A DNA stretch of 62,244 bases, filler included, from Ionaspis alba (taxonomy: Eukaryota): NCBI GenBank assembly GCA_964255285.1. It is 2 parts of 2 records of this genome, joined end to end, with 100 filler letters (N's around TTAATTAATTAA, not from the genome) between each part and the next. Parts side by side here need not be neighbours in the genome. Positions count along the whole stretch, not along the records: positions 31,178 to 62,244 come from CAXUUL010000111.1; 1 more part is not named here. One strand, written 5' to 3'. Both the position numbers and the translations under genes were made by a program. The notes under the pieces were generated by a model. The model was not told where the DNA came from. It ran no database searches and saw only the letters and a list, made by a program, of their open reading frames with translations. How positions within the stretch are numbered: position 1 is the stretch's first letter; every line of letters starts with the position of its first letter. Positions 36,240 through 42,979 of this stretch are shown here, piece after piece.

Positions 36240-38339
36240 GATAAAGACCTTCGCAACATGCGACTAGAGAAATATACCCCAAGATTGGCAAATGAGGCTA
36301 GAGAATGGATAGAAGAGGTACTAGCCACAAGATTGCAACCTGGAGATTTACTAGAGGCTCTGAAAGATGGCACAGCCCTTTGCAAGTACGTCTACTGCCT
36401 AGATACGCATCTCCGCCTGGATAAGCATGGAATCTAACTTCTGAGTAACAGATTGGTAAACCTAGCAATTGCACCACCTGGGGTCCGCTACAAAGAGTCT
36501 CCTATGCCTTTCGTACAAATGGAAAACATATCTCATTTCCTGAGAGTGTGTCAAAGTCCGCCACTCAACCTACAGCCACACGACGTGTTCCAAACCGTTG
36601 ATCTGTACGAGGCGAAGGATCCGGCGCAAGTCCTACAGTGCATCGGAGCGTTCAGTCGACGGGCGAATGCCGTCAATCCAGCCAGGTTTCCGAGGGCAAT
36701 GGGGAAGAGCAAGCAAGGTATTGTGAGTCCACAGCTGACAGGTGGAAGCAATAGCGGCTATATTAGTGGTCAAAGAGGAAGAGGCACAAGTAATGCCAGT
36801 GAAAGCAGCACATCGACGTACACTTCTCCTTCGTGGGGCATTAGTGGAAGAGCTAGTCCTACGAAGAACGGAACCACTTCGCCCACTGCTGGGGCTAGCA
36901 CTTGGAGCAAAAAATCAGACACCGCGGCTACTGGTCCAGCTTGGAATAATGGCTACAATCTGTTGACGAGTGGTTACATGGGTGGCGCGAGCCAAGGTAA
37001 TCAGGGGATCATGTTTGGCGGTCGCCGACAGATCACTACGCCAGCCCCCAAAGTGCCGAGTCTGGCAGAAAAGGAGAGAAAACGACGGGAGCAGGAAGCA
37101 GAGGATGAACGCTTAAGGCTTGCTGCAGAAGAAGCTGAGCGCAAGCGGCGTGAGGAACGTGAAGCAGAGGAAGAGCGAGAAAGGATAGCAGAGGAGAGGA
37201 GATGGGAAGAGGAGACAAAGAGGCAGAGGGAAAAGGAAAGGAGGGAAGCAGAAGAGGAGAAGCGGAAATGGGAAGCGGAGGAAAGGAGATGGAAGGAAGA
37301 GGAAGAAATTCGACTTCGAGAAGAAAAGGAAACCGAAGCCAGACTCGAAAAGGAGAGACAGCGCAAAAGGGCTGTGAGTGATGCTCGTCTGCAAGGGCAA
37401 TTCTTGAGTCAATATCAAGCTCAACAGCGGCAATTGCCGAAGAGCCCTAGTAGCGAGGACCCCGAACGGATAGCTGAGCGAGAACGGATGAAAGATCTCG
37501 AACGACAGTTAGAAGAAGCAAAGGAGCGTGAAAGGCAGTATGAACGGGAGCGGCAAGAGCGACTGCAAGCTGAGTCTCGGAATATTGCTCCGACTGACAA
37601 AGAGACCGCGCCACCGCCCAAGCCGCCTCCAAAAGACCAATCACCTCCATCCAATGGCCCTTCCGACGATTCATGGCAAGCAGATGAGCGAGACTATCTC
37701 CGCCAGCAATGGTCAGACCATCAAAGCAAACACCCCATCGCCGTCTCAGCACCCAAATTAAACAATCCCCCTCAGCCACCTCGACCTCTACCGACTCCTC
37801 AAACCAAGCATTCCTCGTCGCACCGCCCACTTCCACCGGTGTCGCCACCCTCACCTACTCCCTCCCCTCCACCATCACTACCATCCCGGCCCCTTCCAAA
37901 TCCCCAAACCTACACACCCACTCCCTCACGCACAGAAGCATACCTATCCAGTCATCCCCCGCCGACCCCTCACACTCCGCAAACGCACACCCCTGCCACA
38001 GCCGCGCACACCTCCACGAGCGAAGCCGACGCCGAGACCGCACGTCGCCTCGCCTCGCAGCAGAAGACGAAAGCCGGAGGCTGGGCCTCAAAATCTCTGC
38101 TCGAGCGTGAAATGGAACGTGAACGCCAGCGGCAACAGGAGTGGGAGGAGAGCCAGAAACAGACGAAGGAGGCTGTGGAAAAGGGTGTCAAGGAAGGCGG
38201 CAGTGGGCCGGGGGAGAGTTGGGATGTCAATCAGTATGGATACACGGGTGGAGATAATCAGAACAGAGGTGCTGGCATCAACTTCGGAGGCAGGAGGCAG
38301 ATTTTGGGACCTAGGCCACTAGGGCCCAGACCGTCGTAG
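36240..38339 (+). CDS. Calponin-homology protein with calponin repeats, E/R-rich helix and Pro-rich region; start in N gap
   Basis: DKDLRNMRL..Y, WIEEVL, LKDGTALCK, MPFVQMENISHFL, FQTVDLYEAKDPAQV; two GY.GG...FGGRRQI repeats. Confidence 0.85.
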
Positions 38340-38580: not shown

Positions 38581-39467
38581 TCACCGCCTATCATCCCCTC
38601 CTCCAAAGCCTGGTGGTGGTCCGAACCCTTGCTGTCCACCTGGACTAGGCCCTATCCCTTGTGGCGGTCCGAACTGTGGAGGCGGAAACCTAAAGTCAGG
38701 AGGCATGCCGCCAGGTGGTGGGAAAGGCATCCCGCCTGGCATCGGAGGCATCGGAGGCATCCCGCCCTGAGCGTTTGGTGGAAAAGCAGGGAAGGGCATT
38801 CCATGGCCGGGTGTTGGTGCTATAGCGGATAGAGTCAGAAATCATGACTGCTTGGGGCGCGTTGGAAGTGGAAATTATAGCGGTGGAGGGGGAGATGGGG
38901 AACTTACGAGGAAATCCACCCGGTGGTCCGCCGGGCATACCGAATGGAGGTGGCATCATACCGCCTGGAGAGGCAGGAAGTCAGTGTTATGCTGAGATGT
39001 GAGTTAGAGGTTTTGATAGGTCGAGACGTACCAGGGAATCCGAAAGGTGGAGGTGGAAAGGGTTGCCCCGGACCTGGCTGCTGCCCCAGCATGGGGTTCG
39101 AGCCTGCCTGCCCTTCGGCGGCATAGGAGGATGTGATGGAGTCGATGACGGATTGTGCCTTCTCATGACCGATTTCTGTCCAGCATTATCAGCAACTTAC
39201 TCATGGAGACTGTCGTATTCGCAGCGATGAGCTTGTGTCAGGAGTATATACGTTGGTAGTAGTCCACCACGTTTCGCAGATGGTTCTTCCCGCTATTGTG
39301 TGCTTTCCGCACGCTCATGGAGTCGTGGGTGAGGTAGACATCGCAATAATCGCCTTGAAGGAGTCAGCTTGATGCAGTCATAGGCTTGGATGGATTTGTG
39401 GAGAGCCTACAGAAGAGTGCGCCGAGTTAGTGAAGATCTGAGGAGGCAAGAAAGGGGACTTATATTT
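38581..39467 (-). CDS. YHC1: U1 small nuclear ribonucleoprotein C; ATG lies in the adjacent N gap
   Basis: Matrin-type finger (KFF)[51 protein letters not shown] and a Pro/Gly/Met-rich tail. Confidence 0.95.
39417..39463 (-). other. Non-canonical AT-AC intron (U2-like signals) in U1-C
   Basis: 47 nt: ATAAGT...CTAAC(39430-39426)...AC; removing it and the next GT-AG intron restores AAA TTC TTC TGC GAT TAT TGC. Confidence 0.75.
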
Positions 39468-39774
39468 NNNNNNNNNNNNNNNNNNNNNNNNNNNNNNNNN
39501 NNNNNNNNNNNNNNNNNNNNNNNNNNNNNNNNNNNNNNNNNNNNNNNNNNNNNNNNNNNNNNNNNNNAAAGGGTGCTGTATATCAACATACATTCGTGGC
39601 TCACGATACTCCGGTTCAGGATTCTGAAAAGGAGTAATTATAAAATTAAATCCAGTATCAGTATTCAAAAGCAACCACAGAGAACTCCTATCCCAGAGGT
39701 ATCTCCGTGAGTTCCAAAGAATGCAGCGTATGCAATCATCTTAAACATGCTCCATTCCCCTGCGCTGCCATGCA

Positions 39775-41316
39775 TCAATTAAACAATCCGTCCTTTTTCA
39801 AAAGCTCTACATTCCCACCTGCTTCTCTGACAGCCTTCGCCGCAGCTTCACTCAGCTTTCTCCTCTTATCATTTGCTTCCCTTTCCCTCCTCGCCTTCGT
39901 CTTTGAACTTCCACTCGGTGCCACTCCTGTCAGAATTTTCTTGCTATCTTCCGGTGTAAAGTTGACAAAGCCCATGCTGGTTCCATTTGGTGTCTTCGGA
40001 GTCTTGGGAGTGTTTCCGGAGGAATGCTTACGACGTGCTAATTTCGAGCGGCGTCGAGATCTAGAAGTTGGACTTGGAGAGGAAGGAGGGGAGGGAGAGG
40101 CCGATCTCTGTGACCGAGGTGTTTGGGAGTAGCGAGGCGGGATTGAAGTCCCAGGGGAGACGTCAGAAGTGTACTCGTCGTCGTCGGCAATACCCGAGTC
40201 GTTTTGAAAGGGATTCTGAATGGTATTGAAGAAGTTCGTGGAAGGCGCGGCTCGGGTGAGTTCGTCGTAGGGGCCACAATCTATCATGAGGCCTTGAGAA
40301 AAGTCCTGAGGCATGTGCGAAAATTCTTGTGGCTCACTCTGTGGTTCGAGATCTGGGTAGATGGGAGCAGAGTTTTGTAGATTGGTTGTCCAGCTAGGGT
40401 GAATTTGAGTCGGAGAGATAGTGAAATCGGCGTCCGGATTCTGTGTCCACATAGCCGACTGTCGCCGTTGCTCATGTATCGTTGGCTGAAAGATGTGGGA
40501 AGCTCCCGCGCGCGAATGCCTTCTTACTTTCGATGCACGACGGGCGAATGATGTGGGAGAGGTAGGAGAGAGTGGCTCACATTCTGCGGCAGGAACCATG
40601 AAACTTGTAGGCTGCTCTTGCTGCTGCAGCTTTGCCGATGGTGGTGGCGATAGCGAGAGATCATTTTGGGCAACTTGAAGGTTGAACTGTTGAAATCGCT
40701 CTGTCCAGTCGGAGAAAGGAGAGTCCTGCCTCGCATAATAGGAAGATTGCATCATTTTCGGCGAGACAATCCCGCCACGGGTGGATGTTTTCGAAGACTT
40801 TCGGATTCGGTGTGTGGGGGAGAAGGAAGTCGTGGATCGAGAATTCTCTTTTTGGCGCGATCGAGGGTTTATTGGAGTCAGGGGAGGAGATAATACGGTT
40901 GGCGCACCGTGTATGTACGATCGATCTTTCCCCTCGAGATTAAGGAGTTGGTTGCCAGTGATGGCGACGCCCTCAGGACGCAGACGGTGCACGAGCTTTT
41001 GGCTTTGTGGAACAGGAGTGATCTTGTGTTCGCGCCATAAATTCGCTCGCCAAGAATGAAGGGGTTGGTACTGGGAGGCGGAGAGGTTAGAAGGTACCTG
41101 GTTGGTGAAAGGATCGTCCCTTGAGAGCACCTCCATGTCGAGTTCATCAAAGAGATTGGAAGACCCATTGGATTGGTCGCTTGAGTCCAAAGAGTCTTGA
41201 TCGTGGTGGAAGTATTGATCAAAGAAGTTGTCAAGCGGGAGGTCGTGCGGTTGACTGAGAAGATCGATATCTTTGTCCTCGCGAGGGAAGAACTCGGTTG
41301 GAGTGACCCTAGACAT
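39775..41316 (-). CDS. wetA: Developmental regulator WetA (spore maturation)
   Basis: C-terminal ESC1/WetA domain GFVNFTPEDSKKILTGVAPSGSSKTKARREREA..RRKLSEAA..AVREAGG; intronless; first ATG at 41316. Confidence 0.93.
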   Translation of the reverse strand: MSRVTPTEFFPREDKDIDLLSQPHDLPLDNFFDQYFHHDQDSLDSSDQSNGSSNLFDELDMEVLSRDDPFTNQVPSNLSASQYQPLHSWRANLWREHKITPVPQSQKLVHRLRPEGVAITGNQLLNLEGKDRSYIHGAPTVLSPPLTPINPRSRQKENSRSTTSFSPTHRIRKSSKTSTRGGIVSPKMMQSSYYARQDSPFSDWTERFQQFNLQVAQNDLSLSPPPSAKLQQQEQPTSFMVPAAECEPLSPTSPTSFARRASKVRRHSRAGASHIFQPTIHEQRRQSAMWTQNPDADFTISPTQIHPSWTTNLQNSAPIYPDLEPQSEPQEFSHMPQDFSQGLMIDCGPYDELTRAAPSTNFFNTIQNPFQNDSGIADDDEYTSDVSPGTSIPPRYSQTPRSQRSASPSPPSSPSPTSRSRRRSKLARRKHSSGNTPKTPKTPNGTSMGFVNFTPEDSKKILTGVAPSGSSKTKARREREANDKRRKLSEAAAKAVREAGGNVELLKKDGLFN

Positions 41317-41546
41317 GGCGCGTAGACCGGATCTGTTGAGACAGAGGGCTAGGCTAGGCCGTAGAAAGATGGAGGTAGGGCAATTATCAGCTGGTTCCTT
41401 GCAGCAGTATGCAAAACTTGCAGGAGTACGAAATGTAATATTATGCTGAAGAAGCAAACATAACAAAATAAACGAACGAAAGGGACGGCTTTATGAATCT
41501 GAATAATTCTCCATACCAGCCTCTCAACTTTTTGACCCATATCCCA

Positions 41547-41958: not shown

Positions 41959-42979
41959 TTAGACGTCAAAATTCTGCACCTCTGGCATCCTTCCCAACCC
42001 TCCACCACCAGTACCCTGGACACTCTGACTGAGACCCTTACCGTCAACTTGTGCCATAGGTTCTTCATGCACGCCCCCAGCACTCCTGTCGATAACGTGC
42101 CTCCTTAGCATGGCAAGTATCTCGCTATTCTTCCATCTGGCCGGTACTGGTCTGTATGCTGGTTTAAAGGTGCCGACAGTCTGCGCCCACTCACCACTTC
42201 TAGGAGCACCCTTCCTCCACGCATCTGTTTCGGATCTATCCATCGGCTTTCCTTGCGCTGCAGGTGTCGAGATATCCGGACCACCGCCCTCGGCAGTTTC
42301 ATGTGAAGTTGGTGTAGGTTCTTGGGTCGCCCAATAATAGATATCCCAGTCGTTCTCATCAAGGAAAAGATCGTATTGCTTAAGTTGTTCGGTGTTCATC
42401 CTTGGCAAATTCACATCGGCGAAAGTGGATAGCAAGAGATCACTTTCGAGGGTTCCCCTTTTCCGACTCTGATCTATCAAGGGGACTCAAATGTCAGCCT
42501 CATATCCCATCTACCAGTTGAGGTCTTCAACGAAATAACGGACATAACAACCTAGCCCGCATGGTATTGCCATCTTCGCCTGTCCGCCGCAATGGTTCGA
42601 CTTTGAATTGTGCACCTTCCATTTGACCAACCTCCAATTCTGCATTGGGACAATCTTCTGGGCTACCTTTCTGGGTCCCACCAGTCATACGCTCAGTGTT
42701 CTCGGGCACCGAATCCTTGGGAACAAAGTCGGGGTCGACAGAAGTGATTAGCTCTGGAGGTGCTTTGTCGGCACCTACACTGGGCATCTCGTTGGCGATT
42801 GTCGAGGTTGTGTTGGTCATGTGAGGGCCCAATGGCTTCGATTTCTGTTCTTCGCGATGTGCTGGTGTAGTCTCATGCTCCCGGGGGCTTGCGAAGAATC
42901 GCGGGGTTGAGGATGAGAGTAATCGAGTCGTTCTAGAAGAGGCTCGACCAGAGCGAATAGCAAGGCGTTGAAGCGACAT
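41959..42979 (-). CDS. SDH5: Succinate dehydrogenase assembly factor 2 (flavinylation), 2 exons
   Basis: Mitochondrial presequence; [42 protein letters not shown]. Confidence 0.95.

Follow-up and report, generated by a model that had tools for sequence, protein, structure and literature searches.

A split 5' end in the U1-C gene of Ionaspis alba: a 6-nt micro-exon next to an AT-AC intron that is very probably of the conserved U2 type

In the genome of Ionaspis alba (GCA_964255285.1) the 5' end of the gene for U1-C, a protein belonging to U1, a small nuclear ribonucleoprotein (snRNP), appears to be split into a short exon 1 (...ATGCCN AAAT), a 47-nt intron with AT-AC ends, an exon of 6 nt, a 57-nt GT-AG intron and the exon carrying the zinc finger. 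We consider it very probable that this is a constitutive, inherited structure, and that the AT-AC intron is a conserved one of the U2 type. The locus lies in a stretch of 62,244 nt (here called the window), of which positions 31,178-62,244 correspond to record CAXUUL010000111.1; all coordinates are those of the window. Directly 3' of a gap of 100 N, the minus strand reads AAAT/ATAAGT..CTAAC..GCAC/TCTTCT/GTAGGC..CTGAC..CAAG/GCGAT, where slashes mark the exon-intron boundaries. The features are as follows:

39468..39567, no strand: assembly gap (100 N); the window has 10 gaps in all
39464..39467, minus strand: end of exon 1, AAAT (Lys3 and the first base of codon 4), invariant in 9/9 aligned AT-AC loci
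39417..39463, minus strand: intron 1, 47 nt, AT-AC, with donor ATAAGT and acceptor GCAC; the bases are the same in a contig of comparison run X1, and the homologous intron is excised in contig L001 of a relative
39430-39426, minus strand: branch site CTAAC of intron 1, with the branch A at 39427, 10 nt before the intron end
39411..39416, minus strand: micro-exon TCTTCT, 6 nt (completes Phe4, encodes Phe5 and supplies base 1 of Cys6), read from the sequence
39354..39410, minus strand: intron 2, 57 nt, GT-AG, with donor GTAGGC and acceptor CAAG; excised in contig L002 of a relative
39367-39363, minus strand: branch site CTGAC of intron 2, with the branch A predicted at 39364, read from the sequence
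39252..39353, minus strand: exon 3 (last two bases of Cys6, 33 aa and the first base of Gln), with the zf-U1 match
38581..39251, minus strand: rest of the U1-C gene, whose spliced product resembles a Lambiella insularis model
39251-39176, 39031-38965 and 38907-38820, minus strand: downstream introns of the spliced model, all GT-AG
39175-39032, 38964-38908 and 38819-38581 (stop included), minus strand: downstream exons of the spliced model

Exon 3 begins GCGATTATTGC at 39353 and is translated in frame from 39351. Its translation matches the Pfam family PF06220 (zf-U1) with E 2.5e-17 over profile positions 7-38 of 38, and as the match starts at profile position 7, exactly the first six residues of the domain are absent from this exon. 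The spliced product comprises 183 aa from Lys3 to the stop at 38581 and shares 84.5% identity with model P0024 of Lambiella insularis across 181 aa; the PF06220 match and this full-length similarity identify it as U1-C. Named relatives were searched for with the 47-aa next exon as the query, and the best were Schaereria dolodes (98%) and Xylographa pallens, X. soralifera and Icmadophila ericetorum (96%), so that the nearest named relatives of this U1-C are lichen-forming Lecanoromycetes. Class assignment by the summed tblastn scores of named U1-C proteins was discarded, the Pro/Gly-rich tail dominating these scores and placing the window nearest a Sordariomycete. M-P-K-F-F-C, with its first zinc ligand Cys6, would be encoded only after the removal of both introns. 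Retention of intron 1 in the window shifts the frame, retention of intron 2 gives an in-frame TGA, and skipping of the micro-exon is in frame (K-C-D-Y-C) with the loss of Phe4 and Phe5.

Every one- or two-intron path from AAAT to the zinc-finger exon was enumerated with K[FY][FY]CDYC as the target. None of the 26 routes using GT-AG or GC-AG introns gives this sequence, and with AT-AC introns permitted a single route of 128 does so, namely the one proposed here. The original prediction, made from this sequence, had placed an AT-AC intron and a 6-nt micro-exon at the same minus-strand coordinates and had found no path to K-F-F-C-D-Y-C by GT-AG introns alone; both statements hold. The composite pattern AAATATAAGT-N30-60-ACTCTTCTGT has a single occurrence in the window, and none of 100 dinucleotide-preserving shuffles contains it. 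The locus was also compared, at contig level, with three runs of one study (X1, X2 and X3). A 532-nt contig of X1 spans 38943-39467 with five differences from the window, one of them in exon 3 (39256) and four in intron 2 (39358, 39370, 39401 and 39404); the stretch 39411-39467 and the terminal GT and AG of intron 2 are free of differences. Given the five differences, the contig stems from another genotype or assembly that has the same atypical intron ends. In runs X2 and X3 relatives likewise have an intron ending at the position of the intron-2 end.

Evidence at the RNA level comes from two cDNA-like contigs of a relative, each of approximately 1 kb. In L001 the sequence is ATGCCGAAAT^TCTTCT with intron 2 (GTAGGT...CAG) retained behind it, and L002 has a retained intron 1 (ATAAGT...CTAC) followed by TCTTCT^GCGAT. 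Excision exactly at the AT-AC ends is seen in L001 (AAAT^TCTTCT). The equivalents of the two predicted junctions, AAAT^TCTTCT and TCTTCT^GC, are thereby each seen once, one per contig, as the original prediction would have it, and together they indicate that each intron can be removed alone, at the predicted ends and in either order. The idea of a nested intron (stwintron) was dropped for this same reason. The two contigs are 97.2% identical over 941 nt, both carry a premature stop, and both are without the 57-nt intron after ...DYYQ that is present in the genomic relatives L051 (229-kb contig) and L043. As a control, cDNA contigs do occur in the collection: L006 is 100% identical to L004 on either side of the 100-nt GT-AG intron that L004 has in the same position, and L021 matches L018 less two introns.

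For the wider comparison, metagenome contigs were scanned with an alignment of 19 U1-C proteins as the query, and the best 80 of 232 relatives gave 79 loci. The start is contiguous (cDNA or intronless) in 38 of the 79, two introns are present in 23 (L001 included), a single intron at the first position in 14 (L002 included), three loci are cut off upstream and in one the exon was not found. Once duplicate upstream sequences were removed and the window added, there were 31 distinct intron-1 sequences: 11 AT-AC, 19 GT-AG and one GC-AG (L072). AT and AC termini are shared by the window, L029, L051, L055, L057, L059, L061, L058, L075, L077 and L002, all at the same codon position. An alignment of intron 1 across relatives had been suggested at the outset, and it thus adds 10 distinct AT-AC sequences from the 79 metagenome loci, nine of which also show the micro-exon and a second donor of the GTAG type; in the tenth, L002, intron 2 is spliced out. 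The 19 GT-AG introns are divided into seven with and 12 without the micro-exon. Mixed ends (AT-AG or GT-AC) occur in 0 of the 31 sequences and GT-AG homologues occupy the same position, in agreement with the earlier claim that both intron ends changed together. The micro-exon, read as TCTTYT, is invariant in 9/9 AT-AC loci and occurs also in the seven GT-AG two-intron loci; in all, this 6-nt exon, whose flanking introns are removed separately in L001 and L002, is present in 16 distinct two-intron loci and the window.

Splice signals were scored in the 10 AT-AC sequences having both introns; L002 (donor ATAAGT; branch site CTGAC, 11 nt before the 3' end) is listed alongside and stands outside the scores for U12 motifs and for the first AC. 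The scored introns are 47-57 nt long and end in YAC. Their donors are ATAAGT (eight) or ATAGGT (two), which is the U2 donor consensus save for position 1, and a CTRAY branch site lies at an ordinary distance of 10-12 nt from the 3' end in 10/10. In nine of the ten the AC used is the sole AC after the branch A. The sequence [AG]TATCC is found in none of them, nor is the U12-type donor [AG]TATCCTT, the U12 branch motif TCCTTRAY or the U12 branch site TCCTTAAC near the 3' end, so the signals are U2-like and not U12-like, as had been stated before. In an alignment of nine loci, AAAT/ATARGT, the branch site, AC/TCTTYT/GTAG and AG/GCGA are invariant and the intron bodies have diverged beyond recognition. 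Because of this divergence around invariant signals, the AT-AC loci would represent old, independent lineages constrained at the splice signals alone. The relatives free of gaps carry ATGCCNAAAT directly upstream of the AT donor, and by homology the ATGCCN of exon 1 and the 5' untranslated region should lie within the gap of the window.

The taxonomic spread of the AT-AC state was judged from flanking genes and protein signatures. The flanking gene of L051 (AP-3 mu) is 88% identical to that of Aureobasidium pullulans, the next matches (64% and 62%) also being Dothideomycetes, and that of L061 points weakly to the Dothideomycetes (Mytilinidion, 58%, in a family rich in paralogues). L058, L075 and L077 are called Lecanoromycetidae-type solely by the NHERNVLDYYQ signature of the Cladonia, Lepraria, Lobaria and Lecanora models. 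Judged by these similarities, the AT-AC state is present in the Lecanoromycetes and in at least one order of the Dothideomycetes. In three loci on long genomic contigs, L034 (133 kb), L050 (200 kb) and L053 (79 kb), the 5' end of U1-C is fully intronless, which indicates that both introns have been lost repeatedly. In addition, a loose end behind 39353 in run X3 (record 17), as well as L031 and L038, shows an uninterrupted start of the M-P-K-Y-F-C type joined to the zinc-finger exon at a depth of 2.8; this comes from another organism and is a cDNA-like fragment or else a co-occurring fungus's intronless gene. Intron 2 also varies in its donor, which is GTAGGY or GTAGAT in every two-intron AT-AC locus (in the window at 39407-39410, minus strand) and GTAAGY or GTGAGT in all seven GT-AG two-intron loci. 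The association of the GTAG donor with AT-AC ends may be due to shared ancestry. More speculatively, TCTTYTGTAG/G, which resembles a pyrimidine tract with a YAG spaced as usual from the branch site of intron 1, may aid the early recognition of the AC-ending intron.

The donor ATAAGT of intron 1 can be viewed as an ordinary donor in which A replaces G1, with YAC at the intron end, and the intron would have arisen by a paired change of its first and last nucleotides, since other Pezizomycotina have a GT-AG intron at this very position and in this phase. A cytosine as the last intron nucleotide restores exon ligation for an A1 donor. With an adenine at intron position 1 the first splicing step proceeds, but the second, exon ligation to an AG, is blocked, and the two terminal nucleotides of the intron interact (PMC4299874), and an engineered AT-AC intron is spliced in yeast (PMC5029451). 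The all-or-none pairing of ends among the 31 natural versions of intron 1 fits this matched-ends chemistry. Surveys report that minor introns and minor splicing are absent from the Ascomycota, as are the minor spliceosomal small nuclear RNAs (snRNAs) (PMC2846911; PMC10639083). With such a background and with U2-type signals, it is presumably the major spliceosome that removes intron 1.

In terms of its class, the intron is a member of the known, very rare group of U2-type AT-AC introns, here combined with a micro-exon. Such introns have a strong ATAAGT consensus in metazoans (PMC5029451; PMC1557818) and make up 24 of 610,067 introns in SpliceRack (PMC1557818); in fungal annotations AT-AC introns are rare (PMC7072748). 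The animal examples in SCN4A and SCN5A (PMC1557818) resemble the U1-C intron in their ends, the ATAAGT donor, the ordinary branch site and the conservation between distant species. Unlike them, the U1-C intron is found in the Pezizomycotina, which are without a minor spliceosome, resides in a gene for a U1 snRNP protein, is 47-57 nt long and adjoins a 6-nt exon, its dependence on the major spliceosome being a presumption here. The engineered yeast intron with A1 and a final C (Parker and Siliciano 1993, via PMC5029451 and PMC4299874) shows the same all-or-none pairing as the 31 natural sequences, whereas the U1-C intron is natural, conserved and located in an essential gene. The AUA(A/C)GU donor of Aspergillus telomerase RNA is the same variant donor, recognized by the major spliceosome in filamentous ascomycetes (PMC4299874). 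There, however, the A1 donor is combined with a normal acceptor and the reaction halts after the first step, giving the 3' end of the RNA (TER1; PMC4299874), whereas the U1-C donor is combined with AC and the exons are joined in L001. With U12-type AT-AC introns only the terminal dinucleotides are shared, the donor and branch motifs of that type being absent from the U1-C introns (0/10). As for the micro-exon, the Xlr2 gene of the filamentous ascomycete Trichoderma likewise contains an internal exon of very small size (PMC11121469). In that gene it is an alternative switch (PMC11121469), whereas the U1-C exon has 6 nt, encodes conserved residues, is seemingly needed for a functional protein and is not known to be skipped in a regulated way. 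According to that 2024 report, functional micro-exons had earlier gone undescribed in filamentous fungi (PMC11121469).

Several points weigh against an inherited, constitutively spliced U2-type AT-AC intron in I. alba. The ATG and the Pro codon of exon 1 fall inside the gap. The AT-AC loci are phylogenetically non-independent, L055, L057, L059 and L061 forming one close group and L075 and L077 another. L001 and L002 come from a Dothideomycete-like (Aureobasidium-like) relative and not from a lichen fungus; they are 97% and not 100% identical and have no identical genomic contig. No poly(A) tail was seen in either, and their cDNA nature is deduced from the missing introns and the transcript-like length. 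A reciprocal loss of introns in two strains, instead of splicing, is unlikely. Finally, we infer the use of the major spliceosome from the signals and the literature, and splicing in I. alba itself from the sequence.

Public gene models have largely missed this structure. The protein screen covered 268 records, of which 266 were database proteins and two were exon translations from the window. Among the models of 30 relatives, 17 start at the internal Met16 (MSVRK...; MSVRKAHN...) and so are devoid of the first two zinc ligands, two have the true start MPKFFCDYC and two read through the introns. The true start is found in 0/27 models with the NHERNVLDYYQ signature, which is common to Cladonia, Lepraria, Lobaria and Lecanora. 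It is because of the AT-AC intron and the micro-exon that many public U1-C models start at Met16. The L. insularis model P0024 (MPKYKS...NNLHSSVG...QG/DYC) is AAA TAT AAG T...CAC TCT TCT GTA GG written as peptide, and the Xylographa soralifera model P0008 starts with MPKYK. In total, MPKYK, the trace of an AT donor, precedes a recognisable zinc-finger start in 13/266 database proteins, and MPKCK or MPKCT, the trace of a GT donor, is found in five of the screened proteins. MPKC/DYC, a predicted skip of the micro-exon, is found in three (P0095, P0118 and P0172); Hymenoscyphus fraxineus and Golovinomyces cichoracearum, both Leotiomycetes, account for two of these. A fourth layout is seen in four models (P0040, P0072, P0083 and P0116, from Fusarium, Paramyrothecium and Lachnellula), which read MPKFFCK or MPKFFCT; this corresponds to TTCTTCT/GTAAG or similar, so that intron 2 alone is present and intron 1 is absent. 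Two models, P0147 (MPKYKS...AHFC/DYC) and P0224 (MPKYEY...ALFC/DYC), fit a single AT-(N)C intron without a micro-exon, the third base of the Ala codon being unreadable from protein.

Beyond the structure itself, a purpose may be sought for it. The added reading that we favour, though with low confidence, is that the pairing of AT-AC with GT-AG ends acts as a compatibility lock against skipping of the 6-nt exon. The A1 donor of intron 1 needs an acceptor ending in C and the GT donor of intron 2 needs AG, so that the intron-1 donor could not join the intron-2 acceptor; an exon too short for exon definition would then be guarded by the incompatible ends. Skipping would go unnoticed by the reading frame and cost the two phenylalanines, and gene callers do predict the skipped form in the three models mentioned above. 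AT-AC ends are found in 9/16 distinct two-intron loci as compared with 0/13 one-intron loci (genomic-type, the cDNA contig L002 aside), and the matched-ends chemistry points in the same direction (PMC4299874; PMC5029451). However, seven distinct two-intron loci keep the micro-exon with GT-AG introns on both sides, which means that such a lock is not required, and the read-through in P0147 and P0224 fits AT-(N)C ends without any micro-exon. Moreover, the association of AT-AC ends with the micro-exon is confounded by shared ancestry.

A more ambitious proposal, which we regard as unlikely, makes the AT-AC/GT-AG pair a functional device in which the incompatible ends bar skipping and the sub-optimal donors (A at +1; G at +4, invariant in the AT-AC lineages) couple U1-C output to the splicing state. 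If true, it would be a natural sensor of splicing fidelity or dosage, kept since before the split of Lecanoromycetes and Dothideomycetes.

In the original prediction, U1-C activity would govern how far the weak AT donor is used, so that U1-C output would feed back on the splicing of its own transcript. In human cells U1C controls the splicing of U1-70K, a precedent for a U1 snRNP protein controlling the splicing of a U1 snRNP gene. That cross-regulation concerns another gene, organism and mechanism and gives no evidence for self-regulation in fungal U1-C. An autoregulatory sensor would agree with the action of U1-C at 5' splice sites, where it fine-tunes the binding of U1 to mismatched sites (PMC4383343), and with the fact that both donors depart from the GTAAGT consensus in 10/10 two-intron AT-AC loci (ATARGT; GTAGGY or GTAGAT). 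Both partly spliced forms, each with its premature stop, were abundant enough for assembly in the relative, possibly as mere splicing intermediates, and retention of either intron in the window would disrupt the product as described above. Nevertheless, nothing beyond the splice signals is conserved within the introns, and the nine-locus alignment reveals no regulatory element outside the core signals. RNA folding of the 128-nt region gives z +0.53 and the consensus fold of the nine loci -0.69 kcal/mol, that is, essentially no structure, neither significant nor conserved. The loop as stated is one of positive feedback, more U1-C giving more productive splicing, and would not stabilise the level. 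In many fungi this site is GT-AG or intronless, so U1-C expression does not require the arrangement, and the limiting point of U2-type AT-AC introns is the second step and not U1 binding (PMC4299874). We therefore consider such a sensor quite unlikely; the structural part of the original prediction is supported and its regulatory part remains a conjecture.

Could the AT-AC intron itself be an artefact? In this explanation, either a sequencing or assembly error lies close to the gap, or the 114 nt are one ordinary intron and the true first exon (ATG...TTCTTCT, with the ATGCCNAARTTYTTYT exon intact and a GT donor) is hidden in the gap. Indeed, the donor is 4 nt from the gap, and the window and the X1 contig, which ends 7 letters past 39467, break at nearly the same place. 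There are no contigs bridging the gap at 39468-39567, and a loose contig end beyond its far side contains no start codon. However, the bases of the X1 contig are identical, nine loci without a gap show ATGCCNAAAT right before ATARGT together with AC/TCTTYT/GTAG, the composite pattern is not expected by chance, and L001 and L002 display the junctions. The artefact is already contradicted by these data and is very improbable. At 39583-39841 run X1 gives several short overlapping contigs with differing letters at a depth of 26-56, the U1-C gene being a single contig at a depth of 87. The intergenic stretch beside the gap is probably polymorphic or multi-genotype and hard to assemble, which is the probable cause of the break in the assembly. 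The weakest explanation, an AT-AC intron of the U12 type removed by a minor spliceosome, draws on the fact that AT-AC ends are mostly of this type in animals and plants (PMC7072748; PMC3584512), but it is already contradicted by the sequence motifs, all ten scored introns having ATARGT and CTRAY and 0/10 a U12 donor or branch motif, and by the Ascomycota surveys that report no minor introns or minor snRNAs (PMC2846911; PMC10639083), which leaves it practically no likelihood.

Three other features lie in the neighbourhood of the U1-C gene. Upstream, a 571-aa open frame (39775-41490, minus strand) without a match to a Pfam family ends in a basic C-terminal motif, ...FVNFTPEDSKKILTGVAPSGSSKTKARRE...; the motif is reminiscent of the WetA family of conidiation regulators. 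The region 41959-42486 (minus strand) matches Pfam Sdh5, the succinate dehydrogenase flavinator (E 4.9e-22). The region 36438-38339 (plus strand) shows a weak calponin-homology match (E 1.3e-4, short of the curated cut-off), with an extended Glu/Arg/Lys-rich stretch behind it. The whole window has no Rfam match at the gathering threshold.

No published description of the AT-AC/micro-exon structure in U1-C was found in a search whose coverage left out most subscription journals. A U2-type AT-AC intron of conserved nature, with the micro-exon next to it, remains the favoured interpretation of the locus, and in practice the pattern rule AAAT/ATARGT...YAC/TCTTYT/GTAG would correct U1-C models across many fungal genomes. 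The homologous GT-AG, GC-AG and AT-AC versions of intron 1, with no mixed forms, offer a natural series in which the pairing of the first with the last nucleotide of an intron can be compared, and in Aureobasidium-like carriers, which can be cultured, skipping and feedback are open to test. For the fungi themselves, the finding means that a clade without the minor spliceosome has a conserved and apparently obligatory U2-type AT-AC intron, that its host gene encodes a factor of 5' splice-site recognition, and that it adjoins one of the shortest possible exons.

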